Sequence record: PP968062.1
Strand: one strand, 5' to 3'
DNA: 64,000 nt
Source: Pseudomonas phage HPP-Temi
Shown here: in pieces, positions 5,957 to 54,565 of the stretch
Numbering within the stretch: position 1 is the stretch's first letter
Layout: each line of letters opens with the position of its first letter
The notes under the pieces: model-generated
The model's input: only the letters and a program-made list of their open reading frames with translations
Databases searched by the model: none
Told to the model about the DNA's origin: nothing
Translations under genes and position numbers: made by a program

Positions 5957-5998
5957 TGTTGTAATATAGGCTTTAAACCAGTTTAAGTACATACGACA
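5957..5998 (-). promoter_or_regulatory. early-promoter-like element, subfamily B (on minus: ...GCCTATATTACAACA)
   Basis: tgttGTAATATAGGctttaaaccagtttaagtacatacgac. It shares GTAATATAG and TTTAAA..TTT.A..T.CA with the copies at 41151, 53749 and 54525. The CTATATTAC lies ~36 nt upstream of the ATG at 5925. Confidence 0.45.
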
Positions 5999-6302
5999 GG
6001 TTAGCCATAGCAAACAGGGCTACTGTAAAGAACCCAAACCAACCGATGAAGTAGTAACGATAATCACGCCACCACTTGGGAGTATCATAACCATTCGGAT
6101 TGATTACAGCATTACCGATACCCAATACACAGGTCCAGATAGCTGCAACACCAGTAAGGATACTCAGCGTAGTGAACGGTAGATAAATATACGCTGCGAT
6201 AGGGATAGCAATAACCGCAACAAGAATGCAGAACATCAGGTTGGGGAAAGGAAGAGCACCGTGGGGAGCGTTTTCATAAGCGTGTTGAGAGAAAGTAGTC
6301 AT
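5973..6302 (-). CDS. small membrane protein (109 aa, with the start at the internal ATG)
   Basis: The track ORF runs to 6332. The ATG at 6302 has AAGGAAA upstream and avoids overlap with the upstream gene. Hydrophobic stretches include LMFCILVAVIAIPIAAYIYL and FIGWFGFFTVALFAMA. Confidence 0.5.
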   Translation of the reverse strand: MTTFSQHAYENAPHGALPFPNLMFCILVAVIAIPIAAYIYLPFTTLSILTGVAAIWTCVLGIGNAVINPNGYDTPKWWRDYRYYFIGWFGFFTVALFAMANLSYVLKLV

Positions 6303-6312
6303 TTCATTTTCC

Positions 6313-6585
6313 TTAGATGTTGGTAACAGCAATTACAAACAGGATCAGCGTAAAGTAAGTTAATACCAGGTAACATTTCTTTACGAACGTATGGATCAAT
6401 CGGGTCAACGCAATCTCAGAATACTCTATAGACTGCTTTATTAACGTCGGTTTGATGTTCTGTCCGGCTAAACGTAACATGTGTTTATAGTGCGCGGTTC
6501 TGTACTCCTCGCGGAGCTTCAGTTCCAATACATACATCATGACGGCTAATATCGGTGAAACAATAAGCAGGATCACAGGTGACAT
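6313..6585 (-). CDS. small protein with a hydrophobic N-terminus (90 aa)
   Basis: The track ORF starts at 6618. The ATG at 6585 is preceded by GAGGAAATAGAGAA and lies just after the hairpin at 6613-6630. N-terminus MSPVILLIVSPILAVMMYVL. Confidence 0.5.
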   Translation of the reverse strand: MSPVILLIVSPILAVMMYVLELKLREEYRTAHYKHMLRLAGQNIKPTLIKQSIEYSEIALTRLIHTFVKKCYLVLTYFTLILFVIAVTNI

Positions 6586-6612
6586 TTCTCTATTTCCTCT
6601 TCGTGGCATAAA

Positions 6613-6630
6613 GCCCACCCGGAGGTGGGC
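6613..6630 (-). terminator. hairpin gcccacc-CGGA-ggtgggc followed by TTTATG on the minus strand
   Basis: Lies between the stop of 6636..8171 and the start of the next minus-strand gene. Confidence 0.5.
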
Positions 6631-6635
6631 TATGT

Positions 6636-8171
6636 TTAGTGCATGGATATACGCCGTAGCACCATCGACAATGTCTTCCCAGCGAAATGTTCTCCTTTAT
6701 TACGTGCATATCTCACGTGATGCGGTATGTTCTCGCAGACCATGTAGGTCAAACGTGGGACTACGTCAAGGAAATCTTTCAGCTTACGGAGACGACCCAG
6801 AATTTGGATGTTGTCTTTCTTCGAGTCAGTTGCTTGGAGAAGCACTACCTCACGAAGGTTAGGAATGTCTACACCTGTACCGGATGACTTAATAGTAGAC
6901 ACCGTAATGTCGTTATTAAGTAGCTGATCGTAACTACACCCAGAGACATGTCCGTTAACAGTCAAGTCAGGGAACTTAGTCTTCAGGTATTTAACCAGCT
7001 TTTCAATGAAGGCTACAGTTGCACACAGGAGGAGTAGCTTCTGACCAGGTAAGCGGTCTTTCACATACACGCCTTCTGCAATACGACCAACCATCTTGAA
7101 GTATTCATCCATCCGCTTAGGATCTTTCATCATTACTGTTTCGTAACGCGCATGGTTATACGTGTTCTTAAACGGAGTCAGATAATCCTTAGGCTTGATC
7201 TTAGGTTCGGTGTAGAGTAACCCCATGCAGTTGATGTAGACGTCGTAGTTAGGCAACCGACACATCGTCTCGGCAGGCAACATCTTGTCAATCATCTTCG
7301 TCACGTAGGCATTCCCTGTGTAGGGAGTAGCCGACAGATATATCTGCTTATTAATGTTCGAGTAAATATCGATCCGGAAGGTTAGACCTGGATCCTCTTG
7401 AATCTCGTCATTGATTTGGCAGCCTGCTTGGATTGCTTCGTGGAACCGGGGCGGTGGTACATTATACCCGAGCTCATGGAGTCGGTTTCCGTACTTCTCG
7501 AAGTTATCAAGATATGCCCGGTAGGTAGTAGAAGAGATTACAATAACGTCAATCCCTTCAAGATCGTTTTCAACGCCACGATCAATCAGTTTCTGAAGCT
7601 CGGCGGAACCAGAGATTGTGATGTATCTCTGAGCAATGTCTTTGTACGTGTTCTGGAGAGCCTCAATCCAAATACCGAAGTACTTGGGAGGAACCATCAC
7701 AACGCAACGACACATCATCGAGGCAAGGGATGCTAGACTTGTTAGGGTCTTTCCTTTACCTGTTTGTAGGTCAACTCGTGCAGAGTGTAACCAGTCCCGC
7801 AAAATGTCTTCACGGATGATTTCCTGATAATCCCGCAGTACGTATTTTTCGTACATCTCGTAGGTAGCTGCTGCTGCCTTTGGGACAGGGATATCCTCAA
7901 TCTCGACTCGTTCTCTTGGGATACCTTTGTTCTCCAGATAACCGATCAGGTCTTCTAGTGAATTTCGGTGGATATAAGTCTCTGATAGATCTTCGAAACA
8001 ACCATAGTACTTTTTCTTGAGTTCCATGATGATTCGATTACCAGGGATCTTCTTAGGTTCTTTCAAAGAAAGCCCTTCAAGAAACCCCTGCATTTTAGCG
8101 AACGTTTCCCGAGTATACCCAGATAGTCGGACACCATGCGTATAGCGCTCAGCCTTGAGTATCGGTACCAT
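6636..8171 (-). CDS. SF2-type helicase/ATPase (511 aa)
   Basis: Walker A DLQTGKGKTLTS, the DExx-like QINDEIQED, and the helicase-C-like TIKSSGTGVDIPNL. The start ATG lies directly after TTTTTT, with no SD. Confidence 0.55.
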   Translation of the reverse strand: MVPILKAERYTHGVRLSGYTRETFAKMQGFLEGLSLKEPKKIPGNRIIMELKKKYYGCFEDLSETYIHRNSLEDLIGYLENKGIPRERVEIEDIPVPKAAAATYEMYEKYVLRDYQEIIREDILRDWLHSARVDLQTGKGKTLTSLASLASMMCRCVVMVPPKYFGIWIEALQNTYKDIAQRYITISGSAELQKLIDRGVENDLEGIDVIVISSTTYRAYLDNFEKYGNRLHELGYNVPPPRFHEAIQAGCQINDEIQEDPGLTFRIDIYSNINKQIYLSATPYTGNAYVTKMIDKMLPAETMCRLPNYDVYINCMGLLYTEPKIKPKDYLTPFKNTYNHARYETVMMKDPKRMDEYFKMVGRIAEGVYVKDRLPGQKLLLLCATVAFIEKLVKYLKTKFPDLTVNGHVSGCSYDQLLNNDITVSTIKSSGTGVDIPNLREVVLLQATDSKKDNIQILGRLRKLKDFLDVVPRLTYMVCENIPHHVRYARNKGEHFAGKTLSMVLRRISMH

Positions 8172-8191
8172 AAAAAATCAACGAGGGGAAT

Positions 8192-8211
8192 GGGAGAGCC
8201 GAAGCTCTCCC
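8192..8211 (-). terminator. hairpin gggagagc-CGAA-gctctccc
   Basis: 8-bp stem downstream of the beta-prime C-terminal gene. On the minus strand it is followed by ...GATTTTTTATG. Confidence 0.5.
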
Positions 8212-8227
8212 AACCTCGGCCTCCAGC

Positions 8228-12339: not shown

Positions 12340-12370
12340 CTATAACTCCTGTTGATTCGTTGGTGCAGAA

Positions 12371-12399
12371 TGATTATATAGATGTGAAAATTATTTTTT
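12371..12399 (-). promoter_or_regulatory. early-promoter-like element, subfamily A variant (on minus: ...ATCTATATAATCA)
   Basis: tgatTATATAGATgtgaaaattattttt, about 32 nt upstream of the beta gene ATG at 12339. Confidence 0.4.
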
Positions 12400-12413
12400 T
12401 GTAGGATTCCTCT

Positions 12414-12818: not shown

Positions 12819-14159
12819 TTACACCAGACCCAGACCGTTAGTCTGGCGCATGCCAGCTACAGCTTGCAGGTACGGGTTAGCCGGTTGGCCATTGCCCATC
12901 ATCATACCCTGAGGCTGACCACCCATCCATGAAGGGATAGGAGCTGCGGCCTGGATACCACCTTGGTTCATGTTGCCCATGCCGTTGTTCATCATCATGG
13001 GTTGCATCATGGTACCACCCATGTTGTTCATGGGCATCATGCCATTACCTTGCATCATCATGCCGTTGCCCATGGGCATCTGCATCATCATTCCGGGTTG
13101 CTGCATCATCTGCGGTTGCGGATTCTGAGCTGCCATGAATTCACTCATGGAGACAGTATCTTTCTCTACAGGTTTGCTAACAGTAGCGGTCGGACGAGTC
13201 ATCTGCGGGGTAGCAGTTTGAGCAGGAGTAACGGTTGCTACTTGTTTCGATTGTTGAGCTTGACCAACTTCAGCAGTCTCCGGAGTATCTTCATCACGAC
13301 CACCCAGGTTGCCATTCAGCGGGGGAATCAGGTTGTAGATCTTCGGGAACTCGTCGATCAGATCCAGATCAAAGACCGGGATCGGACTAACAGGAATCTG
13401 AAGCGGGATTGCGTAACGATGAATCAGCTGGTTCAGCATCACGATTACTTTGTGATACGCGGTCAGCAGACTGGTGTAATACGGAGCTACACGGCTGGTA
13501 GTACCAAACGCGTATTCTTCCGGATTGTCACCAAACGGAACGACCAGTTTGAACAACGCGGTCAGAACCTTACGCTGCTTCTTGGCCATCTTGACACCGA
13601 GCACATCATCACTTTCGGCTTGCAGATCTTCCAGGATCGGGAAACGCACAATTGCCATGCGGTTCACTTTCTTACCGTCGTAGGTACCACCGTTCTTCAG
13701 GTATACGGCAACCAGACGATTTTTCTTGGTAGCTGCGGGCATCAGCTTCTCGAACAGACCGACAGTTGCTTTGTCAGCATCTGCCAGTTTCTTCAGGAAG
13801 TCAGTTGCATCCGGCGGAAGGTCCTTGTGGGACGACTTATCCGCTGCGATGGTCAGCAGTTGTTCGGCCATTTTGTGGACGACGAAACTGATGTGTGCTT
13901 TTGCTGCACGTTGCAGGTACTGGATCACCGGGGAAGTACCCCGGCGACTCAGCGCTTCACTCAGCGGGTGGAACGGCTGGAAGTCTTCACCGAAGCCCTT
14001 ACGTAGGAACTTGTCGGTCGGGATAACCAGACGCTTACCGTCTACGGTCGAAGGAGAAGCAGTGCCTACCGGATTGCGGAGGCTGATGTAACCTTCTTCA
14101 TCGAACTCGCAGGCGAACGAGGGGAGTACAGATTTATACGAGTCCAAGATCAACGACAT
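12819..14159 (-). CDS. hypothetical protein (446 aa) with a Met/Gln/Gly/Asn-rich low-complexity C-terminal region
   Basis: AAGGAG lies 6 nt before the ATG. The C-terminal ~110 aa are ...QNPQPQMMQQPGMMMQMPMGNGMMMQGNGMMPMNNMGGTMMQPMMMNNGMGNMNQGG...GGQPQGMMMGNGQ. Confidence 0.65.
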   Translation of the reverse strand: MSLILDSYKSVLPSFACEFDEEGYISLRNPVGTASPSTVDGKRLVIPTDKFLRKGFGEDFQPFHPLSEALSRRGTSPVIQYLQRAAKAHISFVVHKMAEQLLTIAADKSSHKDLPPDATDFLKKLADADKATVGLFEKLMPAATKKNRLVAVYLKNGGTYDGKKVNRMAIVRFPILEDLQAESDDVLGVKMAKKQRKVLTALFKLVVPFGDNPEEYAFGTTSRVAPYYTSLLTAYHKVIVMLNQLIHRYAIPLQIPVSPIPVFDLDLIDEFPKIYNLIPPLNGNLGGRDEDTPETAEVGQAQQSKQVATVTPAQTATPQMTRPTATVSKPVEKDTVSMSEFMAAQNPQPQMMQQPGMMMQMPMGNGMMMQGNGMMPMNNMGGTMMQPMMMNNGMGNMNQGGIQAAAPIPSWMGGQPQGMMMGNGQPANPYLQAVAGMRQTNGLGLV

Positions 14160-15788: not shown

Positions 15789-17366
15789 TTACTGGTTGAT
15801 CTGAGCGAGGTGGAGAACCACTTCGGTGATCGTATGCTTGATGTTCGGAGGCGGAATCAGAACGTTGTTCTGTGCGATCTGACCAGAGAGTTTAAACAGC
15901 TCACTCGGGCCATGATAGATCCACGTGGAAGAACGGATAGACTGGTTGCAGTTGTTAACCGCAATACCGGCCATGTTGTCAGGCTTCGGAATCTCCCCGG
16001 ATTGAGGAACCTTAGCAAGCTTCATGTGCGGGTACAGTTCATCCAGTTGCGCCTTGTACTTCTGTGCGATCCGCGATCCGCTTCGAGTATTGCTAAGTTG
16101 ATTCGTCGAGCCATGTTCACCATGGTAAACAGGTTCAACTTGCATGAAGACTGCTACATCCAGGTAACCCCAGTGCCACAGCAAAGCCTGTGTGGTTGCC
16201 AGCAAGGTGTTCACCGGCAGCTTGGAGATATGGTAGAATGCACGTGCAGGGAAAGCCTTAGCCATTACCCATTGAGCAAGCAATACCTGGTGAGGACGGA
16301 TCTCGTAGTTCGCGACCTGATTCACGCAGCTAATGCACTTCCGCAGTTTCTCCAGATCAATGGTCGGATCTACTGTAGTTGCCAGCAGTTCGTAATCCAT
16401 TGCATCGATGTTGTAAGCTTCGATATCACCAGGGCTCACTCGACCTTTAGTCTTGTGGGCCTCGATGAACGAGGTCTTATCTTCATCATCACCACCACCG
16501 CCTTCCGGGCGCTTTTCGTTAACCCGATCAGTTGGGCTACGTTCAGCAGGGTTCAGGTTGCTACGCACGTAACGGAACGTGTTAGCTACGATGGAGTGGG
16601 ACATTGGATCGTTCAATGGAACAATAGTCAGTCGACGTACCAGAACCTTCGAGCGAAGGTGTACCGGAATCTCAACCGAACTCATACCCCGCCAGAGACT
16701 ACCCAATGTGGTCGGCTCATCTTCAACGCAGAATTTGACGTACCCTTCCAGTTTGTCGAATGCGACATCTACGTCTTCACCCACTTCGTCTTTTTCGAGC
16801 AACGGCCAGTTAGCAATCTCACAACGGCTGATAAGACCAACGACTTCGTTTTCCTTATGGAGTTCTTGATCCGTACCCGAATCAATGTATTCACCCCAGA
16901 TCGGAACCATCGGACGCAGAGCCAATGCAACTGTTGCCAGGTTGATGTAATCATGTTGCAGGTAAGTCTGCTCCCGCTTGGTATAGCGGGATTCATCAGT
17001 GATCGTTTTCTGGATCTCTGGTGGAATATGCAGGTTACCGATAGTCAGCAACCAACGACGGAGTTTGTTCATCGGCAATGCCGAGTACAGTTCGTGGATG
17101 TAATGAATCAGCGTACTGGAGATGTGCGCAGGTTCGAAGTCCATCTTGAACAGATCGTTGATTTTGACATAGCTGTTCCAAATACGATCTTGGTCAGCTT
17201 CATCACAACCTTCAAGGTAATCGTTGAATTCCTTGAACACCCGAGTAGGGTCGTTGAGTTTTACTTTGCTATAAGCTCGTGTACTCCACTTGATTTCGTT
17301 TCCTTTATGGCTCGTAGTCACTTCTACGAAACCGTTCCCTTGTACTCCAGTTACGTCAATACGCAT
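15789..17366 (-). CDS. hypothetical protein (525 aa)
   Basis: Long ORF with the GAGG SD. A subfamily-A promoter-like element lies about 30 nt upstream. Confidence 0.65.
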   Translation of the reverse strand: MRIDVTGVQGNGFVEVTTSHKGNEIKWSTRAYSKVKLNDPTRVFKEFNDYLEGCDEADQDRIWNSYVKINDLFKMDFEPAHISSTLIHYIHELYSALPMNKLRRWLLTIGNLHIPPEIQKTITDESRYTKREQTYLQHDYINLATVALALRPMVPIWGEYIDSGTDQELHKENEVVGLISRCEIANWPLLEKDEVGEDVDVAFDKLEGYVKFCVEDEPTTLGSLWRGMSSVEIPVHLRSKVLVRRLTIVPLNDPMSHSIVANTFRYVRSNLNPAERSPTDRVNEKRPEGGGGDDEDKTSFIEAHKTKGRVSPGDIEAYNIDAMDYELLATTVDPTIDLEKLRKCISCVNQVANYEIRPHQVLLAQWVMAKAFPARAFYHISKLPVNTLLATTQALLWHWGYLDVAVFMQVEPVYHGEHGSTNQLSNTRSGSRIAQKYKAQLDELYPHMKLAKVPQSGEIPKPDNMAGIAVNNCNQSIRSSTWIYHGPSELFKLSGQIAQNNVLIPPPNIKHTITEVVLHLAQINQ

Positions 17367-17397
17367 TTATACCTCATTGATGCTGGTGATACACAAC

Positions 17398-17427
17398 TGT
17401 AATATAGATCTGAGATATTTTTTAATG
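17398..17427 (-). promoter_or_regulatory. early-promoter-like element, subfamily A (on minus: CATTAAAAAATATCTCAGATCTATATTACA)
   Basis: tGTAATATAGATCTgagatattttttaatg. Consensus member. Confidence 0.5.
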
Positions 17428-17445
17428 TCAGGAAATAGAGGGCAT

Positions 17446-18326: not shown

Positions 18327-19154
18327 TCAGCGCAGAAGTGCATAGGATTCTTTGAGTTCTTTACTGCCATGTGTTGTTATGTCATGGTAGATTTTGTCTT
18401 GTGTTGTAACAGGCGACCAACGTCTTGAAGCAGCTAGTTGCTTTAGTTGAGCCTTGATTGCTTTTGACTGCGCTTCGAAAACAACACCATCTCCGAACAC
18501 TTGTAAAGTGAACTTAGTGAAGGGGATCGGTGTATCCTCTTTTATGCCGTTAAGCTTGGTGTACCACAAGTTGTACGGTTTAATTTTCCCTGTGTGGGAT
18601 TCTAGCAGAAGAAGACGATCGAAATATTGTTTCCACAGTAGTTCATGTGGGAAATGCGTAATCAGAGCGATCGTACCCTGGGTTCGCACTGGAGCTCTAT
18701 CGATCTCCATTACTTCTATTCCTGCATCTTTCATTTGGTGCAGGAGTTCAATTGCAGCGTAGCGTTCGTACACTTCATATGCCATTTGCTTTGGCGTCTT
18801 GGCTTCTTTATAGATAGCCTTGGGGTATTCCCATTTGACCGAGTCTTTAGATGCGATATACCAACGCACCTTCACCTTCGATCCATGTTGCCCCAGTGCA
18901 ACCGGTATTGTTGCGATCTCCTGCATTAGGATAGTCACTGCATCAGCAGGGTTAACGCCATGGACTTTATCCGTAGCTACCGCTGAGTTAAGATTACGGG
19001 CCAACGTTCTAAGGTTGACCCAGATCTCTTTTACCGATTTAACGTCAATTGGGTGCTTGGTCTGATTTGGGTGAATTCCCAAGAACCCCTCAAAGGCAAG
19101 AGAAGTCCCGATACTAACGGGTATCTGACCGACGTCTCTTTCGATGAGTTCCAT
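18327..19154 (-). CDS. hypothetical protein (275 aa)
   Basis: Long ORF on the coding strand. Confidence 0.6.
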   Translation of the reverse strand: MELIERDVGQIPVSIGTSLAFEGFLGIHPNQTKHPIDVKSVKEIWVNLRTLARNLNSAVATDKVHGVNPADAVTILMQEIATIPVALGQHGSKVKVRWYIASKDSVKWEYPKAIYKEAKTPKQMAYEVYERYAAIELLHQMKDAGIEVMEIDRAPVRTQGTIALITHFPHELLWKQYFDRLLLLESHTGKIKPYNLWYTKLNGIKEDTPIPFTKFTLQVFGDGVVFEAQSKAIKAQLKQLAASRRWSPVTTQDKIYHDITTHGSKELKESYALLR

Positions 19155-19156
19155 TA

Positions 19157-20302
19157 TTAAGTCCTAACGAACGGGATAAGCCTTTCAAGGCACCGTATTT
19201 GCACTGTTGGATCACTGGTCACTTTCTCAATTTCATCTTTGAGTAGACCCGTGATTGTTTCGGGAGTAATAGCGATAAACTTCGACATGTCAAATTCTTT
19301 CAGACTTGTCGCTACACTATTCTTTTTCTTAGTAGCTTTTTCCACCAAGACCGACCATTCGTAGTTAGGATACTCAATACGGAATGTCTCGATGTCACCA
19401 TTAGCTACGTCCATCGGATCACATCGTAGACGAATAGCTGAGTACTTCGGAAGATCCGCTAAGGTTTCTTTAACTTTGTTCAAGAGTTGCTTGGTATCGA
19501 AACCATGCACTTCAAGAGTTACGTACTTCTTAGCATTTTTGTTCTGTATAAAGGTAGCAGTGAAATCACCGTTATCACGAACCACAAAGTGGAACAAACC
19601 TTTGTCGATCTCATCTCCATGGCAGATTCGATCGAAAGAACCAGCAGCGTAGATCCGTTCATGGATAGTCATGTTGTGTACATGACCAATCAGGATCTGA
19701 TGTTTTACCAGTTTGAGATATTCTGCTTCATCGTGAGTTGGTTCTTCCACGATAGAAGGAAGCTGATAGCTAAATGCCCCGTGCATAATAGCAAAGTCAA
19801 CTTGATCAATTCCTAGTGCAGCCATCTGTTCTTTCACTTGAGAAAGCGTTACAGCGGTAGACGGATGCCACTTGTCTGGGACATAAAGGAAATGAGCATC
19901 GAGCTTCTCATTGTACTCAATCGACAGAGTCTTCGAGTAATGGAGGTCGACTGGAATATCTACGTTGATTTTCTGTTCAACGAAAAACTGGGTTTGTTCA
20001 CGGTCATGGCTTGGTGTACCTTCAACAATTCGTAACATCACATTGTTAGCAGCGCAACGCATCATGAACGTAGTGGCCCAGCGGTTGATCTGGTGCACTG
20101 ACTCGTCGCCATAGTTCAACTGGCGATCAAACAGGTCACCAGTAATGATGACCATGTCAAGATCCTTTAACATCTTATCTGTGATTACCTTATCGAGGTT
20201 CAACAGAATGTGAGATGTAGGAGTTGTCCGATGGCCTAGGTGTACGTCACCTAGGCTTATATAACGGAAGGTGCCGGGGAACTTAGTCTTATCAGTCTTC
20301 AT
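19157..20302 (-). CDS. Mre11/SbcD-like metallophosphoesterase nuclease (381 aa from the internal ATG)
   Basis: Calcineurin-fold motifs LGDVHLGH, VIITGDLFD and IGHVHN. The start is placed at the ATG at 20302 (MKTDK...). This start overlaps the upstream stop (ATGAAGACTGA). Confidence 0.6.
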   Translation of the reverse strand: MKTDKTKFPGTFRYISLGDVHLGHRTTPTSHILLNLDKVITDKMLKDLDMVIITGDLFDRQLNYGDESVHQINRWATTFMMRCAANNVMLRIVEGTPSHDREQTQFFVEQKINVDIPVDLHYSKTLSIEYNEKLDAHFLYVPDKWHPSTAVTLSQVKEQMAALGIDQVDFAIMHGAFSYQLPSIVEEPTHDEAEYLKLVKHQILIGHVHNMTIHERIYAAGSFDRICHGDEIDKGLFHFVVRDNGDFTATFIQNKNAKKYVTLEVHGFDTKQLLNKVKETLADLPKYSAIRLRCDPMDVANGDIETFRIEYPNYEWSVLVEKATKKKNSVATSLKEFDMSKFIAITPETITGLLKDEIEKVTSDPTVQIRCLERLIPFVRT

Positions 20303-24934: not shown

Positions 24935-26800
24935 TTAGTACAGAGTACCAACCGAACCAGCCATGTTCAGCTGGTAGCCACCACCAACGCCCATGCCGTT
25001 GACAACCTGAGCGGTAGAACCGACAGCGAAGTCTTGAATCATGGTGTTGCCGGTGAAGCGCTGAGCACCGAATACCTGAGCAACGTTGTCCATTGCTACG
25101 GTCAGACCGGCAGCAGCGATCGCCTTATCCAGACCCTCGATGAATTTCGGGTTGAAGATACCGCGATGTGCACGGGTGGTGTAAGTTACAGCGCCCAGGA
25201 ACGCACGGTCGTAGTTCTTGGATTGCTTGTTGCGCAGTTCCGGATGAATGTTCGGGTTGCACTGAGTACCGTACCAGGACATCCACTCTTGCTGGTTGCC
25301 TTCTGCGGCGTTCAGAGCACCGAGAGCGTCGAGGTCACGACGGTCACGTTTCTCATCGCCATCCCAGTAGTAGCCCTTGTTGATTTCGGTACCAGTCGAT
25401 GCAATGATCGGCTGGGTGTTGAAATCGAAGAAGCGCTCGAAGCCGCCACCAACCAGGTTCTGTACAGCGCGAATGATCGCGGCAGTAGCTTTCTGTTGGT
25501 TCGGGCCACCCATGGCATCCAGGAAGATCACGTCCAGAGCCGCGTTGTCGCCCATGCGGTCCAGGTCGATCAGGAAGGACGGGTTCGGACGAACCATGCT
25601 CAGCATCAGATCAGCGAAGTTCTGATCGGTGAAGGTGTCGGACTTGGTATCGATCTTCTTGTTCAGGTTGGACAGCCAACCCAGAGCACCGATGTCACCG
25701 AGGTCCTTCACTTTACCTACCTGAGGCAGGAACTTACGAGCCCAAGCCTGACCAGCAGTTACGCGGAAGGCGTTCGACAGAGCGAAGAGATACAGTTCCA
25801 GAGTGTTTGCCTTGATCCAGTTCGCCTGACGAACGTCAGTGATCAGGATCGCCGGGGAGAACGGCGGCAGCGGTTGGGTCTGTTGACCGAACATCTGGGC
25901 TTGCGGAGTCGGAGTGTACTCCAGGGTTACCTGTACCGACACCTGGTTCAGCATGGTGTCTGCTTCGTAGAACTCGTTCTCTTGCTGACCTTGCTTCTTG
26001 GTGCGGTTCAGGCTAACGAGGATGTCCGACTTGATCGGGTTACCAACGCTGTCCATTACCGGACGACCGGAGAAGTCCATCTTGGCAGCCAGGGTTTCGT
26101 CTTGGCCACGCAGCATGGCGATCTGGAACGGAGTCTCGCCAGCTTTCTTCGCCAGAACGTCATCACACAGGTTGACGGAGCGAATCAGGATGTCTTTCAG
26201 CAGGACTTCATCTTTCAGATCGAATTCAGCCGGGATCGGCAGCGGACCGGCCGGGTGTACTTCAGCCTTCGGACGACCGGTGGTCTGACGAACGAAGTCG
26301 CAGATGCGGTTCCAGTACTGAACGGTGAAGACGTCTTGCACTTCAACGTCAACGTCGAAGCGATCGTGGCTCATGCCGTTTTGAATGGTCACTTGGCGAG
26401 GAGCCAGGGTGATTGCCGAGTTCGGCATGATCAGCGGACGAACAACGATGATGCCGTTGCCACCAGCTGCATGCTTGACGATCAGCAGAGCGGAGTAGCC
26501 AACGCGGTTAGCGTCGCGGTCGAAACGCAGGATCTGGAAATCGTTTTCCAGGTCTTGATGGTCGATGGCATCTTTGCCAACGCGGGTCATTACTTGCAGA
26601 GCTTCGCTCGCACGGGCGTCGCCGCCATCAGTACGACCGGAGCGTTTGAACATGTTCGGCAGGCCGGAGATACCGCCTTGCAGAGTTTGAGGAGCGGATT
26701 GTTGCATGCGAGGAGCTTCCTGTTGTGCGCGCGGAGCAGCTTGAGCCGGACCGTTGTTGGCTTGAGCTTGGGTGTTTTGAGCGTCGGTATCACGAATCAT
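24935..26800 (-). CDS. abundant early protein (621 aa); candidate chimallin (nucleus shell) by size, position and expression signals
   Basis: Extreme codon bias (cgt/ctg/ggt/acc/gaa), which also makes the antisense frame open for 595 aa. Q/A-rich N-terminal tail. An early-promoter-like element lies 65 nt upstream. It is immediately upstream of the beta-prime N-terminal gene, as phiKZ gp54 is to gp55. No sequence motif confirms the call. Confidence 0.45.
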   Translation of the reverse strand: MIRDTDAQNTQAQANNGPAQAAPRAQQEAPRMQQSAPQTLQGGISGLPNMFKRSGRTDGGDARASEALQVMTRVGKDAIDHQDLENDFQILRFDRDANRVGYSALLIVKHAAGGNGIIVVRPLIMPNSAITLAPRQVTIQNGMSHDRFDVDVEVQDVFTVQYWNRICDFVRQTTGRPKAEVHPAGPLPIPAEFDLKDEVLLKDILIRSVNLCDDVLAKKAGETPFQIAMLRGQDETLAAKMDFSGRPVMDSVGNPIKSDILVSLNRTKKQGQQENEFYEADTMLNQVSVQVTLEYTPTPQAQMFGQQTQPLPPFSPAILITDVRQANWIKANTLELYLFALSNAFRVTAGQAWARKFLPQVGKVKDLGDIGALGWLSNLNKKIDTKSDTFTDQNFADLMLSMVRPNPSFLIDLDRMGDNAALDVIFLDAMGGPNQQKATAAIIRAVQNLVGGGFERFFDFNTQPIIASTGTEINKGYYWDGDEKRDRRDLDALGALNAAEGNQQEWMSWYGTQCNPNIHPELRNKQSKNYDRAFLGAVTYTTRAHRGIFNPKFIEGLDKAIAAAGLTVAMDNVAQVFGAQRFTGNTMIQDFAVGSTAQVVNGMGVGGGYQLNMAGSVGTLY

Positions 26801-26867
26801 GATTTGTTCCTATGTTTGTAACGTTTCTTGATCAAGAATGAGATCCAACAGTGTATTGGATTCAAAA

Positions 26868-26898
26868 CTGTTATATAGATCTCAGATTTTTTTTAATG
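26868..26898 (-). promoter_or_regulatory. early-promoter-like element, subfamily A
   Basis: ctGTTATATAGATCTcagattttttttaatg. Confidence 0.5.
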
Positions 26899-28690: not shown

Positions 28691-28720
28691 TATGATATAG
28701 ATTTGAAATTATTTCTAATG
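28691..28720 (-). promoter_or_regulatory. early-promoter-like element, subfamily A variant (TATGATATAGATTTgaaattatttctaatg)
   Basis: Lies 40 nt upstream of the minus-strand start at 28649. It also lies 10 nt upstream of the plus-strand ATG at 28731. Confidence 0.4.
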
Positions 28721-34480: not shown

Positions 34481-34924
34481 TTAAGCACTCATAGGTTTGC
34501 GCGAAACCACAAATGCAAATGAACCGTTCATATCGATCGGCCACATTGACAGTACATCCAGCAAGGGATTATTCAAGCTGAATTCCTTGAAGACTTTATA
34601 CATCTCCACCACATTGATGTTTTCATCGTCAAGCAGATCATCAGTAGCACCTGCTGATTCGAGGATGTGTTCTCCGAAGTTGTTCATGACTTCACGCTGG
34701 AAGTAGAACAGGATACGCTTCCGAATTTGTTCTACCGGAAGCTTAATATCCTTACCCACGGTACCCGCCAGTTCATCTTCTAGCGAGTCATCCACTTCTT
34801 TCTTATCGCGCTCCACGATCCAACGATCCTGGTAAAAGCGCAAGCCGAACCGCTCTGCATACAGAGCTCCAGCTATGGTTCCTGCAATGACGAGATCATG
34901 CATCATCTTCCGGGCCCAACCCAA
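34481..34924 (-). CDS. hypothetical protein (147 aa)
   Basis: ORF on the coding strand. It slightly overlaps the upstream gene. Confidence 0.5.
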   Translation of the reverse strand: MGWARKMMHDLVIAGTIAGALYAERFGLRFYQDRWIVERDKKEVDDSLEDELAGTVGKDIKLPVEQIRKRILFYFQREVMNNFGEHILESAGATDDLLDDENINVVEMYKVFKEFSLNNPLLDVLSMWPIDMNGSFAFVVSRKPMSA

Positions 34925-35678: not shown

Positions 35679-36127
35679 TTGGGAGCCTCCACTGAAAGCA
35701 CCATTATTGAGAGTTTGTATTTGTCATAACCTACTACGTTCACAGTAGAAATTATCTCTGATTTCTCCAGGAACGAACGGAGGGTTGAAACCATATCGTC
35801 TTTGTAGGTGCTTACGCAGACATCCATCAATTCTCGAAAACGGAGCCGCCAGTCGACTGCTTCACCATCGTCGTTAATCGTCTTTATGATGTCCTGACCA
35901 TCGAAATCTTCGCTAATGAGGGAAAGATATGCATCCTCCAAATAAATCTCGTAGAAGCTCTCCCAGACGGGTAAGTGGAAGTGTCCGACGTACTGCCGAA
36001 CACAGTCGGCAAAATAAGTCAGAACTCGCTTAACTAGAAGCGCGTTTTCTTCCTTTACCAACTGGTCGACTAAAGTCTTCGATTCGAAAACTAGTAACGA
36101 TCGCATGCTGTTGCCACTTACTCCCAT
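35675..36127 (-). CDS. hypothetical protein (150 aa, with the start at the ATG at 36127)
   Basis: GGAG lies 7 nt upstream of the ATG at 36127. The track ORF extends to 36187. The gene overlaps the upstream gene by ~98 nt in another frame. Confidence 0.45.
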   Translation of the reverse strand: MGVSGNSMRSLLVFESKTLVDQLVKEENALLVKRVLTYFADCVRQYVGHFHLPVWESFYEIYLEDAYLSLISEDFDGQDIIKTINDDGEAVDWRLRFRELMDVCVSTYKDDMVSTLRSFLEKSEIISTVNVVGYDKYKLSIMVLSVEAPK

Positions 36128-36515
36128 AGTACTCCAACAGGAACCGAGCAGCTGTACCCTTGAACATAATCGGGAAGATCGTCGCAATCCCTCTTGGCAA
36201 TGAGCGCAGGAAGGTTATCGCGTGTTCTAGGAACAACTCTTGGTATCTCTCTGCCAGTTTACCATTATAGCTAAATTGTGGGATATCTACATCCGTCGGT
36301 ATTACCTCTGGGTTCTGGTTAAGCTTCCTAGAAACCTCTAAGACCCAAACAATCACATCATCCCAAACACCACCGGGGCCGTAACCTTTGAACTCCTTCT
36401 TTTTAAAGATGGTTCTATGAAGACGTTCTAGCTCCTCGTAGTTAGGGAAGAATATCCCCAAGTCCATCGAGAAGACTAGGGACGCGGGTAGCGATGACAT
36501 ACACTGCATCTCCAT
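36030..36515 (-). CDS. hypothetical protein (161 aa)
   Basis: ORF on the coding strand. It has overlaps of 74-98 nt with both neighbours. Confidence 0.45.
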   Translation of the reverse strand: MEMQCMSSLPASLVFSMDLGIFFPNYEELERLHRTIFKKKEFKGYGPGGVWDDVIVWVLEVSRKLNQNPEVIPTDVDIPQFSYNGKLAERYQELFLEHAITFLRSLPRGIATIFPIMFKGTAARFLLEYYGSKWQQHAIVTSFRIEDFSRPVGKGRKRASS

Positions 36516-38737: not shown

Positions 38738-38768
38738 CTATGATATAGATTTGAAATCTTTTAAAATC
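38738..38768 (-). promoter_or_regulatory. early-promoter-like element, subfamily A variant (cTATGATATAGATTTgaaatcttttaaaatc)
   Basis: Near-identical to the copy at 28691. Confidence 0.4.
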
Positions 38769-41150: not shown

Positions 41151-41186
41151 TTTGTAATATAGCCTTTAAATTGGTTTGAATGTAAA
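41151..41186 (-). promoter_or_regulatory. early-promoter-like element, subfamily B (TTTGTAATATAGCCTTTAAATTGGTTTGAATGTAA)
   Basis: Identical over 35 nt to the copy at 54525. Confidence 0.5.
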
Positions 41187-44823: not shown

Positions 44824-45126
44824 TTAACCTTCTACGATTGAAATCAGTTCGCCACGCTCAGCTTCGTTGAGCTGGGCAAACAGGTATTCACCTACTTCAG
44901 CAGAGAGGGCTCCGAGTTGCCATTGAGCTTTCTCTTCATCGGTAGCTTGAGCAAACACTTCCGGATGGATTTCTTCCAAGAATACCAGAGCGAGTTTATT
45001 GAACTGGCTCAGGGTATTGATGTTGAACTGGATAATGAACTTGTCGACTGCGCGCTTATCATCAAAGCAAACAGTCTTCGTGGTCATTCCAAAGTGAATG
45101 CTACCAAACTCTTCAATTTCACACAT
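44824..45126 (-). CDS. hypothetical protein (100 aa)
   Basis: ORF on the coding strand. Confidence 0.5.
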   Translation of the reverse strand: MCEIEEFGSIHFGMTTKTVCFDDKRAVDKFIIQFNINTLSQFNKLALVFLEEIHPEVFAQATDEEKAQWQLGALSAEVGEYLFAQLNEAERGELISIVEG

Positions 45127-46335: not shown

Positions 46336-46437
46336 TATTGGGTGGATGGGGCTTTGTAGCCCCACGACACCCTCTTCCAAGTTTTGCGACATAGTCGTTT
46401 TTTGTTTCCCTACCCCTGACTAAAGAATAAGGAAATT

Positions 46438-46475
46438 ATATATGGGACCCCCCCAAAGGGTCCCCCCCACATATA
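46438..46475. repeat. palindromic C7/G7 element TATATGGGACCCCCCCAAAGGGTCCCCCCCACATATA (on minus: G3-N1-G3-N7-G3-N1-G3, a potential G-quadruplex)
   Basis: GGGACCC/GGGTCCC form a 7-bp stem. There are two C7 runs (G7 on the minus strand). It is flanked by the TATATG/CATATA arms. Confidence 0.5.
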
Positions 46476-46612
46476 ATTACTATTTATATAAAAATTCTTT
46501 TAGAAGAAAAAGCTTTGAATAATGAAAATACTCTTTATTAAAGAATTCTATTCTTCTACTACAAATTACTTATGCGCGGCCCGGCCCCGCGAAAAAGAAA
46601 AAAAGAAAGCAA

Positions 46613-47460: not shown

Positions 47461-47487
47461 CTGTAATGTAGATCTAAAAACAAATAC
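47461..47487 (-). promoter_or_regulatory. early-promoter-like element, subfamily A variant (ctGTAATGTAGATCTaaaaacaaatac)
   Basis: Lies 35 nt upstream of the ATG at 47427 and immediately after the hairpin at 47496. Confidence 0.4.
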
Positions 47488-48653: not shown

Positions 48654-48673
48654 AGCCTCTCCCGAAGGAGAGG
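48654..48673 (-). terminator. hairpin gcctctcc-CGAA-ggagaggc
   Basis: Family member. Confidence 0.5.
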
Positions 48674-50160: not shown

Positions 50161-51165
50161 TTAGAAATCGACAGTGATGGTTACTTCGTCTTTGTTATCG
50201 TCAATAGCACGAAGACTGATGATGGTTTCGTTATGACGAACGGAGCGAGAGATCGATACCAGTTTAGTGGCACCGAGGGCATGGAGTGTATCCATGATTT
50301 CTTTGGCGCTAACCAGAGGAGCTTTGTCCATGTAACTGGTCAGCAATACTTCGGTGCGTTCCAGAGTGAGAGGTTCAACGAATGCGGTCTGTTGATCAAT
50401 CGATTGGTAGTAGCCGAATTGACAGATGACGTACTTACGTTTCAGGATACCATCCACCTGACTAACCACGTCTACGCGACGATGCGAGTAGTTATAGTTT
50501 TCCAGAACGTACAGGTTATCCGGATACAGGGGAGCCAGCTTATCAACGAAACCATTTGCAGCTTCACCGATAGTTGAGTCGAGGTGCAACATGACATCAT
50601 CACTAGCGTAGTCGATATTGATCTTAGCGTAAGGCTTGGCATCAACAGTACGATTTGCTTGTTGTTCGGAATGCAGGTAATTCAGTGTATAGCCTTTATC
50701 AGCTACTTCGCTGGATACCTTAGCCAGTAGCGTCAGAAGCTCGCTACCCGCCGGACTCTTTTCAGCGTACTCGGCATAAAGCATAGCCAGCTCTTTGCTC
50801 ACCGATACCTTAGAGAAGTCAACCGAACGAATGATGACGGCATTGCTGGTATTGCGATAAGGTTCGTAATAACCATCCTCTTCACCAAAACCACCGTAGC
50901 CATTACCGTACTTACGAACGATGCCAATGGAACCGATCATCTTGCGAGTGTTGAGATCAAAGATATATTGATTCAGTCTCGGGCACTGGTTTACAGAGAT
51001 AACCGATTGTTCGTAGCCAGTGTTGTACCAGTCGCTCACCAACAGGTTACCATGGATACCAGGTTCGACCAGATCAAGGCCAATGAACTTAGCCGACCAA
51101 TTTGCCCAGGTGAATTTGGGCTCTTCACGTTTTACAGCTTCTTCTTTTACAACAACATTGGACAT
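50161..51165 (-). CDS. hypothetical protein (334 aa)
   Basis: AGAGG SD. A promoter-like element lies 40 nt upstream. Confidence 0.6.
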   Translation of the reverse strand: MSNVVVKEEAVKREEPKFTWANWSAKFIGLDLVEPGIHGNLLVSDWYNTGYEQSVISVNQCPRLNQYIFDLNTRKMIGSIGIVRKYGNGYGGFGEEDGYYEPYRNTSNAVIIRSVDFSKVSVSKELAMLYAEYAEKSPAGSELLTLLAKVSSEVADKGYTLNYLHSEQQANRTVDAKPYAKINIDYASDDVMLHLDSTIGEAANGFVDKLAPLYPDNLYVLENYNYSHRRVDVVSQVDGILKRKYVICQFGYYQSIDQQTAFVEPLTLERTEVLLTSYMDKAPLVSAKEIMDTLHALGATKLVSISRSVRHNETIISLRAIDDNKDEVTITVDF

Positions 51166-51230: not shown

Positions 51231-51264
51231 GCGCAATGATCTGATTAATCCAAGAGGTATAGCC

Positions 51265-52509: not shown

Positions 52510-52527
52510 AAAGAAAAATGACATATT

Positions 52528-52549
52528 GCCCTCTCCCGAAGGAGAGGGC
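52528..52549. terminator. hairpin gccctctcc-CGAA-ggagagggc (identical stem to 4978)
   Basis: Between convergent genes. On the minus strand it is followed by CAATATGTCATTTTTCTTTTTATC. Confidence 0.55.
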
Positions 52550-52557
52550 TTATGCCG

Positions 52558-52773
52558 CTACTTGAACAAGTGATCTGCCAGGATAATGATAAACAAAGCA
52601 AGGCCAGTGTTACGACCCCCTTTGAATATACGTACCCACCACTTGGACTTCCTCAAAGTAACTTTATCACGCTGATCAACTTTCTCTTGACGATACTGCT
52701 TCTTGGAGAACAGGTATCCGATGTTCAGGATCATGCTAACCATAAACAGTCCAGACAATCCGACAGCAACCAT
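52558..52773 (-). CDS. small membrane protein (71 aa)
   Basis: MVAVGLSGLFMVSMILNIGYLF. Preferred over the mirror plus-strand ORF that starts at the hairpin's TATG. Confidence 0.45.
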   Translation of the reverse strand: MVAVGLSGLFMVSMILNIGYLFSKKQYRQEKVDQRDKVTLRKSKWWVRIFKGGRNTGLALFIIILADHLFK

Positions 52774-52976
52774 TAGTTGTTGTAATCGATTACAGAAGCT
52801 AACAGATCAGCGGCAGTCCGATCGTCAGCGTTCCATAGTTTATCACACCACTCCTTATCTTCAGGGTTGGTGATCTTGTGGAGTTCCATGTGGTTATGGA
52901 ATGCTTGTCCCCAACGTTGAGACTTGTCGGGGTTGGTGAACGTAGCCAGACGGCTATAGGGAATTGTTATTGCCAT
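52773..52976 (-). CDS. hypothetical protein (67 aa)
   Basis: ORF on the coding strand. Confidence 0.45.
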   Translation of the reverse strand: MAITIPYSRLATFTNPDKSQRWGQAFHNHMELHKITNPEDKEWCDKLWNADDRTAADLLASVIDYNN

Positions 52977-52979
52977 AAC

Positions 52980-53345
52980 TCACCGTATGCATTTAAGGGA
53001 ACGTTTGGTCTGTTCACTCAGAGGACCAGAACAATCATTGGTCTTCATGGCGATCAGGGTTTGGTAGAACTCGGTCAGCATCGGACGATAGAAATCGATT
53101 TCCTCCACAGTGAACTTACCCGCGGGGAAAGCGATCGTGTAACCGTCTTTCGGTTGACCGTCATATTCGGTGAACAGATCACCATTGTCAACGTAGTTGC
53201 AGATACCCTGGTTACAGTAGATCAGATCAGAACTGTCTACCATCTCGGCGTACAGTTGAGCATCGTATTCCACCGGATTGAACGGGTTAGCTACAGCAGC
53301 TTGCATTGCGATGGCGGATACTACAGCGATGATCAGTTTACGCAT
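52980..53345 (-). CDS. secreted/periplasmic protein (121 aa) with a signal peptide
   Basis: MRKLIIAVVSAIAMQAAVA followed by NP.... It has 4 Cys. Confidence 0.5.
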   Translation of the reverse strand: MRKLIIAVVSAIAMQAAVANPFNPVEYDAQLYAEMVDSSDLIYCNQGICNYVDNGDLFTEYDGQPKDGYTIAFPAGKFTVEEIDFYRPMLTEFYQTLIAMKTNDCSGPLSEQTKRSLKCIR

Positions 53346-53357
53346 TTTGTTTAGTCC

Positions 53358-53717
53358 TTACTTGGCAGTCTTGAAGTGGTTGATTACAGCGTTGATCAAC
53401 ATCTCTTCGATGTCGACCTTCTTGTACTGAGGTTCCGAGTTCTCGTCTTCTTCCATATCCCAGTAGATAGTGGCACGCAGCAACGCGGGTGCTGTGAAAC
53501 GAATGATCTTACCGGTAGCATCGAACTCTACGCTGAACATGGCGTATTGCTCAGAGGTACCGTCTCTGTAGAAGATGAACGCTCCGCCGAAAGTACGAAT
53601 CTCCAGTTCACCGAACTTGCTGATACGGACTTGTCCATCGAAGTACTCGCTCTTGACGCGCATGTTGTCTTCGATAACGGTGAACAGTTCTTTGAGAAGC
53701 TCCTGGTTGAGTTGCAT
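53358..53717 (-). CDS. hypothetical protein (119 aa)
   Basis: A subfamily-B promoter-like element lies 35 nt upstream. Confidence 0.5.
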   Translation of the reverse strand: MQLNQELLKELFTVIEDNMRVKSEYFDGQVRISKFGELEIRTFGGAFIFYRDGTSEQYAMFSVEFDATGKIIRFTAPALLRATIYWDMEEDENSEPQYKKVDIEEMLINAVINHFKTAK

Positions 53718-53748
53718 TCGTAGACTCCTATTGGGGTATTGAATTCAC

Positions 53749-53787
53749 ATTTGTAATATAGTCTTTAAATAGACTTCAATGTAAGAC
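53749..53787 (-). promoter_or_regulatory. early-promoter-like element, subfamily B (TTTGTAATATAGTCTTTAAATAGACTTCAATGTAAGACG)
   Basis: Contains the internal palindrome AGTCTttaaatAGACT. Confidence 0.45.
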
Positions 53788-53794
53788 GACATAA

Positions 53795-53813
53795 AGCCCA
53801 CCCGAAGGATGGG
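53795..53813 (-). terminator. hairpin gcccacc-CGAAG-gatgggc (one mismatch)
   Basis: Family member. Confidence 0.45.
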
Positions 53814-53821
53814 CTTGTTGA

Positions 53822-54460
53822 TCAACGAGTACTGTAGTACTTGTAGATCAGACTGTAGTTACCGCCCTGCTGCTTGGCAGTGCGATCCAGCGCCTCGCAT
53901 TCGGCTTTGCCGTTGCGATAGACTGCCGAATCATCACTGTAGCTGTAGTACCAGTCGGCCTTCTTGCAGTGTTCTTCGAACACCTGCTCGTCCTCGGTGA
54001 GGACACCCCAGTTCTGGGTGGCTTTGACTGGTTCCACAGGAGCCGGCTTGGGAGCCGCCAGCTCTTGTTGCAGCTTGGCGATATCGTTGGCGTACACACG
54101 CGCAGCGAAATACCCAGCCTTGTCGGACCGACCGCGGGCTTCATAGCGCACCCGCATGCCATCCAGCCCATAGACCCGAATCCCATCCACCGAGGTCACT
54201 CCCATGAAGTGACCCTCGTGCAGAGAGACGCGGTCATTGAACCGGATCATGCGGCGACCATCCACCGTCCCCACGAAGTTCTGGGTGGACTTAGCCACGG
54301 CCTCGAACAGCGTGCTGCCGACATCGAAACACGCATGGTCAACGCTGTCCAGCAACCCGTAGACCAGCAGGGCAGTCGTCTCACAGGCGACTACCTCGCA
54401 TGCAGGGGCATAGGCCAGAACTTCTTGTTGCAGGGCCAGCAGTTCGTGTTTGTAGATCAT
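53822..54460 (-). CDS. hypothetical two-domain protein (212 aa) in a GC-rich (~58-60%), compositionally atypical gene
   Basis: Codons shift to ctg/gcc/ggc/cgc/gtg, unlike its neighbours. A Pro-rich linker AAPKPAPVEPVKA separates an N-terminal domain from a C-terminal ~60-aa domain. The antisense strand carries a 179-aa ORF because of the GC bias. Confidence 0.6.
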   Translation of the reverse strand: MIYKHELLALQQEVLAYAPACEVVACETTALLVYGLLDSVDHACFDVGSTLFEAVAKSTQNFVGTVDGRRMIRFNDRVSLHEGHFMGVTSVDGIRVYGLDGMRVRYEARGRSDKAGYFAARVYANDIAKLQQELAAPKPAPVEPVKATQNWGVLTEDEQVFEEHCKKADWYYSYSDDSAVYRNGKAECEALDRTAKQQGGNYSLIYKYYSTR

Positions 54461-54524
54461 GGTATTCTCCTATTGAGTTTGAAAAGCCAACCATTTGGCC
54501 TTTTCTAATGGGGTATTGATCACC

Positions 54525-54565
54525 TTTGTAATATAGCCTTTAAATTGGTTTGAATGTAAGACGGC
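54525..54565 (-). promoter_or_regulatory. early-promoter-like element, subfamily B
   Basis: Identical over 35 nt to the copy at 41151. It lies ~65 nt upstream of the ATG at 54460. Confidence 0.5.

Follow-up and report, generated by a model that had tools for sequence, protein, structure and literature searches.

The early promoters of the jumbo phage phiKZ, which are read by its virion RNA polymerase (Ceyssens 2014, as cited in PMC8244752, PMC10914365 and PMC7598289) have been mapped by their transcripts, and their published consensus, tatattaaaaaaaatttaagatgtatattacaaatgtg (PMC12676376, supplementary file 1), has the core TATATTAC, followed by aaatgt and then by G; the published counts of these promoters are 28 and 32. 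An AT-rich early motif situated ~10 bp before the start, with conserved blocks at -10, -20 and -30, has been described in 201phi2-1 by ONT-cappable-seq (Oxford Nanopore sequencing of capped transcripts; PMC11512511), and only six early promoters were recovered experimentally in that phage. In Bacillus phage AR9 an injected multisubunit virion RNA polymerase (vRNAP) reads early promoters of the form AAATATATATTAT-(6N)-G+1, of which there are 41 in the genome, and the phiKZ start lies 6 nt past the consensus (PMC5312081). According to a review, a motif of this kind precedes the early operons of every jumbo phage that encodes RNA polymerases (RNAPs; PMC7598289). Here we analysed a 64,000-nt stretch of Pseudomonas phage HPP-Temi (PP968062.1; the whole stretch is called the window below), which carries twelve copies of an element with the minus-strand core CTATATTAC. 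We assign these, with a probability of about 0.9, as early promoters of a phiKZ-like (Chimalliviridae) jumbo phage that are read by its vRNAP; the acting enzyme, the precise start position and the timing early in infection are carried over from phiKZ and 201phi2-1.

The exact 9-mer GTAATATAG occurs seven times in the window and on the plus strand only, against an expectation of 0.33 (seven occurrences were reached in 0 of 100 shuffles); read on the minus strand it is CTATATTAC. A previous inspection of the letters by a model (the sequence-only reading) had reported twelve copies around one shared core. This core is exact in 7/12 copies, whereas the remaining five carry one or two mismatches in the 9-mer and yet are clear members of a longer element. 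All twelve copies align without gaps over ~42 nt. The minus-strand consensus is tacATT.aAA...aTtT.A.at-CTATATtAc-A....TGa, in which the blocks near -20 and -30 agree with the descriptions in PMC8244752 and PMC11512511, and G at core+7 is found in every copy (12/12). A 42-nt matrix (24 nt upstream, the core and 9 nt downstream) was trained on the twelve window copies and used to scan both strands of the 64 kb. The copies scored 35–50 bits (21–44 bits leave-one-out), no further site exceeded 8 bits and the top score over 50 shuffles was 13.8 bits. Because the rest of the window stays at or below 8 bits, the number of copies is exactly twelve and each of them is on the minus strand, just as had been proposed.

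Each copy precedes a minus-strand start codon, which lies 28–69 nt downstream; the position upstream of minus-strand genes had thus been recognized properly, the range of 30–65 nt being slightly too narrow. Given that qualifying positions make up ~5% of the window, finding 12/12 copies there by chance has a probability of ~3e-16. Counted from the predicted G start, the predicted 5' leaders measure ~22–63 nt before the first gene. The same matrix scan of the window gave no element upstream of the plus-strand genes (homologues of phiKZ structural proteins), nor upstream of the sheath and tube genes, for which its absence had been noted already; all of these are virion genes. A strong GC-rich hairpin lies within a few bases upstream of seven of the twelve copies, six of these having the typical form of a terminator, and 32 terminator-like sites were counted in the 38–57 kb region (15.2 expected). 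The positions given in the sequence-only reading are the starts of its printed strings and fall 1–4 nt to the left of the 9-mer; its two copies at 41151 and 54525 (9-mers at 41154 and 54528) are indeed identical over 35 nt. The twelve elements, with their matrix scores and with the class (A or B) discussed below, are as follows.

5952..5993, minus strand: predicted early-promoter element, class B; core CTATATTAC at 5969-5961; predicted start G 5954; 36.6 bits (22.8 leave-one-out)
12364..12405, minus strand: predicted early-promoter element, class A; core CTATATAAT, the most deviant copy (plus-strand 9-mer variant ATTATATAG at 12373); predicted start G 12366; 35.5 bits (21.5 leave-one-out)
17390..17431, minus strand: predicted early-promoter element, class A; exact core; predicted start G 17392; 50.1 bits
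26861..26902, minus strand: predicted early-promoter element, class A; core CTATATAAC (plus-strand 9-mer variant GTTATATAG at 26870); predicted start G 26863; 46.7 bits
28683..28724, minus strand: predicted early-promoter element, class A; core CTATATCAT (plus-strand 9-mer variant ATGATATAG at 28692); predicted start G 28685; 46.4 bits
38731..38772, minus strand: predicted early-promoter element, class A; core CTATATCAT (plus-strand 9-mer variant ATGATATAG at 38740); predicted start G 38733; 37.4 bits
41145..41186, minus strand: predicted early-promoter element, class B; exact core; predicted start G 41147; 48.7 bits
46300..46341, minus strand: predicted early-promoter element, class A; exact core; predicted start G 46302; 38.3 bits
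47454..47495, minus strand: predicted early-promoter element, class A; core CTACATTAC (plus-strand 9-mer variant GTAATGTAG at 47463); predicted start G 47456; 37.2 bits
51196..51237, minus strand: predicted early-promoter element, class A; exact core; predicted start G 51198; 37.4 bits
53744..53785, minus strand: predicted early-promoter element, class B; exact core; predicted start G 53746; 46.0 bits
54519..54560, minus strand: predicted early-promoter element, class B; exact core; predicted start G 54521; 49.4 bits

The published 38-nt phiKZ consensus was used as a probe that is independent of the window. It matches the twelve copies at 24–30 of its 38 positions, and all twelve are found within the top 13 window matches; the sequence-only reading had pointed to a phiKZ early consensus, and TATATTAC is in fact the core of the published one. 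The sole interloper, tied at 24, is an AT-rich chance match at 46470. It was considered as a thirteenth copy (46470–46507) and rejected, having no core and a matrix score of <8 bits in spite of its 24/38 matches to the published consensus. The invariant G at core+7 fits the spacing rule of PMC5312081, the start position itself being predicted; placing +1 at this G brings the conserved blocks to about -10, -20 and -30, the arrangement reported for 201phi2-1 and phiKZ (PMC11512511).

The closest relatives of the window are the P. aeruginosa jumbo phages PA1C, PS119XW, HHBS36_1, BRkr, phiLBG22 and phiHQ (82–86% identity over nearly the full length), while phiPA3, 201phi2-1 and phiKZ are more distant. 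The plus strand of the window is colinear with HHBS36_1 from 238.5 kb to the genome end at 302 kb. The window phage represents another lineage than phiKZ (PA1C/PS119XW-like), with a G+C content of 47% versus 37% in phiKZ. A genome-wide scan, suggested with the sequence-only reading as a check, was carried out in the relatives with the window-trained matrix. In the phiKZ genome it returned 29 sites at ≥24.5 bits and a further site at 18.4 bits; every one of them is on the plus strand (best shuffle 21.5). Among them are sites before PHIKZ054 and PHIKZ260, both of which have mapped primary start sites, that of PHIKZ054 being tied to the early motif by differential RNA sequencing (dRNA-seq; PMC8244752). 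In the whole 302-kb genome of HHBS36_1, 34 sites were found at ≥19 bits on a single strand; 30 of them are located 26–120 nt before an annotated co-oriented start, and the other four have a co-oriented open reading frame (ORF) start with a ribosome-binding site 29–72 nt downstream, in genes annotated on the opposite strand or with a start too far upstream. All 34 thus precede a co-oriented ORF start, by 26–120 nt. The sites in 201phi2-1 score 10–34 bits with the window matrix, lower than those of the window.

The comparison with HHBS36_1 was uninformative with respect to conservation (92% identity in the motif versus 82–88% in the flanks), and more distant genera were therefore compared. Orthologous sites are present in phiPA3, 201phi2-1 and phiKZ before chimallin, before the gp68 homologue, before the gp053-like gene, before the gene upstream of gp043 and after the helicase gene; in phiKZ, the gp041.3 homologue is preceded by a site as well. 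Across five phages of four genera, 17–25 of 42 columns are identical in the motif, as against 0–10 of 50 upstream and 1–2 of 75 downstream. Conservation is confined to the motif, which stands out as a clear footprint.

The motif, its number, its strand and its position are direct observations, as is its orthology to the early promoters of phiKZ and 201phi2-1. With the phiKZ promoters the window copies share the core TATATTAC with G six bases on, the A-rich and T-rich upstream blocks, the positions before orthologous genes (chimallin, gp68, gp71-74, gp041.3, gp076) and a similar number per genome on one strand (34 in the 302 kb of HHBS36_1 and 29–30 in phiKZ; 12 in the 64-kb window). They differ in class B, which has (G/C)CTATATTAC in the window and CAGTATATTAC in phiKZ, and the transcripts that have been mapped are those of phiKZ. 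AR9 has the same layout, a TATATTA-type AT-rich element followed by six unspecified bases and a G start, but with TATTAT instead of the TATTAC seen here and with other upstream blocks; it also has uracil-containing DNA and a Gram-positive host, and it does not form a nucleus. The kind of signal is already known from phiKZ, and the window copies add another phage.

On this assignment, the multisubunit vRNAP would enter the cell together with the DNA and recognise a ~40-bp AT-rich signal with conserved blocks near -30, -20 and -10: cATT followed by an A-run at -30, a T-rich stretch followed by AGAT (class A) or TTTAAA (class B) at -20, and (C)TATATTAC at -10. Transcription would start at the invariant G, six unspecified bases past TATATTAC. 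The products would be the non-virion RNAP (nvRNAP; homologues of phiKZ gp55, gp68, gp71-73 and gp74), the nuclear-shell protein chimallin and those of the PhuZ tubulin operon, together with the proteins of a DNA-polymerase operon and several small ones whose function is not known, and intrinsic terminators directly upstream of most copies would insulate each unit.

Three points weigh against this assignment. The start site, the timing and the polymerase would all be transferred to the window phage by homology. The 12364 copy has the deviant core CTATATAAT and no cATT block and may work differently, because the orthologous RNAP genes of 201phi2-1 have no such site (none >10 bits with the window matrix at the orthologous place, 71.3–71.9 kb) and a middle promoter has been reported there, for gp129/130 (PMC11512511). 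Finally, not every copy need be active, since five of the twelve cores are degenerate and a single mismatch can inactivate a predicted early promoter in AR9 (PMC5312081).

Gene identities in the window were obtained by carrying over the annotation of HHBS36_1 by tblastn, and key genes were then matched to phiKZ. The principal genes are listed here.

26800-24938, minus strand: chimallin, PHIKZ054 homologue
24541-23078, minus strand: nvRNAP subunit, PHIKZ055 homologue
17366-15789, minus strand: PHIKZ068 homologue, promoter-specificity subunit of the nvRNAP
12339-10228, minus strand: nvRNAP beta gene, PHIKZ071-073 homologue
10201-8228, minus strand: nvRNAP subunit, PHIKZ074 homologue
44805-43861, minus strand: PhuZ
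1326-1, minus strand: vRNAP subunit, PHIKZ080 homologue
58472-56382, minus strand: sheath gene
56346-55474, minus strand: tube gene

A DNA polymerase gene is encoded as well. Both kinds of RNAP are represented in the window, by one homologue of a vRNAP subunit (PHIKZ080) and four of nvRNAP subunits (PHIKZ055, 068, 071-073 and 074), and the genes downstream of the elements include the homologues of PHIKZ054, 055, 068 and 071-074 and phuZ. The gene assignments of the sequence-only reading hold: its candidate chimallin is the PHIKZ054 homologue, its beta/beta-prime genes are homologues of PHIKZ071-074, and the phuZ operon ends at a terminator just past phuZ.

The 12364 copy lies 33 nt before the nvRNAP beta gene, after which come the PHIKZ074 homologue and a helicase gene; this copy is identical in HHBS36_1 (42/42), and phiKZ has a class A site at 63038. 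The 17390 copy, which reaches 30/38 matches to the published phiKZ consensus and has a terminator hairpin directly upstream, is 32 nt before the PHIKZ068 homologue, itself followed by gp069- and gp070-like genes. Its orthologous sites are at 48654 in phiPA3, 66616 in 201phi2-1 and 57959 in phiKZ, and an early promoter has been reported before 201phi2-1 gp124, the orthologue of the window gene at 17366 (PMC11512511).

The 26861 copy is located 69 nt before chimallin, in an operon that continues to the PHIKZ055 homologue. Class A sites precede chimallin in phiPA3, 201phi2-1 and phiKZ too, with 23/42 identical columns in the motif versus 2/75 downstream. Within the chimallin 5' leader (window ~26822-26840, minus strand) the 14 nt TTCTTGATCAAGAA, downstream of the early promoter and ahead of the start codon, form a perfect palindrome. 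phiKZ has the identical sequence (~25610-25625), phiPA3 (~39530) has TACTTGATCAAGTA, where the change is two-sided and the symmetry is kept, and 201phi2-1 (~53575) keeps the 10-nt core CTTGATCAAG; elsewhere the leader has diverged. The palindrome could be an RNA hairpin or a protein-binding site.

The 28683 and 38731 copies have the core variant CTATATCAT in common. The former lies 42 nt before a 519-aa ORF (28649-27090), and the variant recurs at the syntenic site in HHBS36_1, phiPA3 and phiKZ (44897). The latter lies 28 nt before a 134-aa ORF (38711-38307), the first gene of a ~9-kb run that includes DNA polymerase, and the variant is present at the syntenic site in 5/5 phages compared. A homologue of this ORF is encoded in phiKZ (NC_004629.1) at 35938-36324, between PHIKZ042 and PHIKZ043, where RefSeq has no gene (31% identity, E 9e-15); it lies just downstream of the class A site at 35851.

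The 46300 copy is 37 nt before a small ORF (46271), the first of the operon that runs to phuZ and ends at the terminator 43851-43834; its syntenic counterpart in phiPA3, at 20276, is of class A too. The minus strand between this promoter and the terminator at 46634-46611 has an unusually long AT-rich non-coding stretch of ~215 nt (46395-46610) with a G-rich hairpin, GGGGGGGACCCTTTGGGGGGGTCCC, near 46443-46470; only 32-aa ORFs are annotated there in HHBS36_1. Directly past the phuZ terminator, six minus-strand genes (43808-41246) have no early-promoter element upstream and therefore depend on another kind of promoter or on read-through. The 47454 copy, adjoining a terminator (47513-47496), precedes a 261-aa ORF (47427-46642) by 35 nt and has a syntenic site in phiPA3 at 19135. 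The 51196 copy is 39 nt before the ATG at 51165 of a 334-aa ORF; its syntenic site in phiPA3 is at 16218, and the annotated start of the HHBS36_1 homologue would cross the element.

The class B copies are followed by small genes. The 5952 copy lies 35 nt before the ATG of a 66-aa membrane ORF (5925-5725), after which comes a 62-aa ORF, and its counterparts in HHBS36_1, phiKZ (70314) and 201phi2-1 (77890), which likewise follow the helicase gene, are of class B as well. The 41145 copy, with a terminator directly upstream, is 33 nt before a 74-aa ORF (41120-40899) that is homologous to phiKZ 34626-34847 (gp041.3); its phiKZ counterpart at 34559 is also of class B, with 34/42 identical columns. 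The 53744 copy, again with a terminator directly upstream, lies 35 nt before a 119-aa minus-strand ORF (53717-53358) with minus-strand homologues in HHBS36_1 (87% identity) and phiKZ (gp281, 54%), and its counterpart in phiPA3 is a class B site at 13697. The 54519 copy lies 67 nt before a 212-aa ORF (54460-53822) that is preceded by AGGAGA, and it too has a terminator directly upstream. It has no syntenic counterpart in HHBS36_1, being within an insertion (~53800-55260) that is absent from that phage. The 212-aa ORF of the insertion has no tblastn match in HHBS36_1 or phiKZ; the insertion also holds a 206-aa ORF (55213-54593), a 26–35% identical paralogue of virion structural proteins including those of the phiKZ gp083 region.

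The division into two subfamilies, which the sequence-only reading had made within the window, is real and old, and it is present in phiKZ and HHBS36_1 too. The phiKZ sites split into 18 of class A and 12 of class B (silhouette 0.288, null maximum 0.228), with a summed column dependence of 91.8 versus 62.4 ± 1.5 under the null. In HHBS36_1 the summed column dependence is 93.9 (null 75.2 ± 1.5) and a few sites are intermediate; average-linkage clustering of the HHBS36_1 sites gave no A/B split, because of one outlier. The layout of class A is an A-run, T.T.AGAT and CTATAT, and that of class B is ATTcAAA, 4–5 nt, TTTAAA, two bases and TATATTACAAATGTGAt. Pairwise identity is higher in class B (0.75–0.76) than in class A (0.63–0.67). 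The published phiKZ consensus blends features of both. The hexamer AGATCT had been put forward as a conserved BglII-like feature of subfamily A; it is found in 5/8 class A copies and is not a special site, because there are 31 in the window versus 17 expected. As a restriction-related site it was likewise rejected, not being depleted in HHBS36_1 or phiKZ.

In the window and among the sites checked, class A precedes recognisable core genes (nvRNAP subunits, chimallin, the phuZ operon), and class B only small ORFs of unknown function. Most of the orthologous loci compared have retained their class, over as many as four genera. Class A is found at the chimallin and gp68 loci, at the gp053-like gene and upstream of gp043, whereas the sites that follow the helicase gene and precede the gp041.3 homologue are of class B. 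At two loci even the core variant CTATATCAT has been retained, in four and five of the phages compared. A candidate exception is window 53744 (class B) against phiKZ 23560 (class A), which are similar in position and of uncertain orthology. Retention of class identity and of site-specific core variants at orthologous loci suggests classes that are functionally distinct. Tentatively, then, and with the odds somewhat against it, phiKZ-like phages may have early promoters of two discrete ancient architectures that differ in function, as immediate- and delayed-early regulons, in strength or in dependence on a co-injected factor. Recent duplication as the cause of the likeness within class B was mostly rejected, as the flanks are at random identity except in one phiKZ paralogue cluster. 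Pattern scans of IMG/VR were uninformative: the class B 17-mer gave 8 matches, 3 of them in phiPA3, and a 14-base class A pattern gave >120 matches, mostly single and unspecific. An exact 42-mer had no match in IMG/VR. A description of the two-class split was not found in the literature, the original 2014 phiKZ paper and the supplementary promoter tables lying outside the coverage, and a search for a subdivision of phiKZ early promoters into immediate- and delayed-early ones returned nothing relevant. The two-class structure is the only part of this analysis that might be new.

One alternative, which we consider very improbable, is that the elements, or one of the classes, are middle-type promoters that are read by the nvRNAP or need a phage-made factor. 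PHIKZ054 has a middle-type start site in addition to its early one (PMC8244752), 201phi2-1 gp129/130 were assigned a middle promoter (PMC11512511) and the 12364 copy is atypical. However, the published middle motif (TACT ~22 nt upstream, with an A-run before it) and late motif (TATG at the start) are different (PMC7598289, PMC8244752), and the two classes, both of which contribute to the published early consensus, together reproduce the published number of phiKZ early promoters. Moreover, the nvRNAP cannot be the first enzyme to read the elements, because its own genes are situated downstream of them. The deviant 12364 copy may be an exception.

The repeats could also be regarded as mainly recombination or mobility modules, in which terminator-plus-promoter cassettes shuffle small genes and the copies resemble each other through copying and not through selection on a promoter. 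T4-type phages reportedly have cassettes of this kind, called PeSL, with early promoter and hairpin modules flanking small accessory genes, which Arbiol et al. are said to have described in 2010; there is no evidence of mobility here apart from one insertion, and the similarity is limited to the motif. The window-specific insertion at ~53.8-55.26 kb does bring a class B copy of its own, which shares an identical 35-nt stretch with the 41145 copy; the phiKZ class B sites 2640, 4141 and 4491 also share 5' leader sequence, and most copies abut a terminator hairpin. Within each class, however, similarity ends at the edges of the 42-nt motif and the flanks are 25–38% identical, that is, random (HHBS36_1, phiKZ), which leaves little support for mobile cassettes, and the copies stay at orthologous loci across four genera while their flanks diverge. 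Cassettes would be compatible with promoter function and at most an addition to it; as the main explanation they have hardly any chance of being correct.

That the elements are host sigma-70 promoters, with TATATT as the -10 hexamer and TTTACA or CTGACA as -35, is scarcely credible and was rejected on spacer, hexamer matches and scan result: TATATT does resemble the TATAAT-type AT-rich hexamer upstream of the start, and four copies (17390, 41145, 53744 and 54519) have 4–5/6 matches to TTGACA upstream, but these hexamers are always at a 19-nt spacer, outside the usual 16–18 nt at which no usable -35 is found, the other eight copies have ≤3/6 matches, the TATATT hexamer would occupy -14 to -9 instead of -12 to -7, a sigma-70 scan of 38–57 kb (21 sites, versus 29.7 in shuffles) called no element at its TATATT and gave one overlapping call with shifted hexamers (41170-41142), the invariant or conserved C before TATAT, TAC after it, G at +7 and the -20/-30 blocks are not sigma-70 features, and transcription in the phiKZ group reportedly proceeds without the host RNAP and is not inhibited by rifampicin (PMC8244752).

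The positions of the promoters also bear on the annotation of HHBS36_1 (PQ287642.1). CDS0412 (292195-292542) and CDS0342 (244234-244488) are annotated on the strand opposite to the promoter, and conserved proteins are encoded on the promoter strand at these places, with 87% and 62% identity to window ORFs 53717-53358 and 5925-5725, respectively. Other annotations that overlap promoters are the starts of CDS0407 and CDS0125, the gene CDS0112 and the 30–32-aa ORFs CDS0386 and CDS0399. At 45011-45102, a tandem pair of class B sites 50 nt apart precedes CDS0083; no window copy is duplicated in this way.

The early-promoter assignment provides a map of twelve predicted early transcription units in 64 kb. 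As in phiKZ, one and the same signal for the injected polymerase would precede the genes for the nucleus shell, the PhuZ spindle and the second RNAP. The map also corrects the annotation of related phages: two HHBS36_1 genes have been assigned to the wrong strand, and one or more annotated starts lie across a promoter. Jumbo-phage RNAPs have no sigma homologue, and a specificity subunit has been named for the nvRNAP only (gp68) (2026 review); no explanation of how the vRNAP recognises its promoters was found in the literature covered. Two upstream architectures whose coexistence predates the divergence of phiKZ, phiPA3, 201phi2-1 and the PA1C group offer a template pair for in vitro and time-resolved experiments, and defined early promoters are useful parts for engineering such phages, as in PMC12676376.

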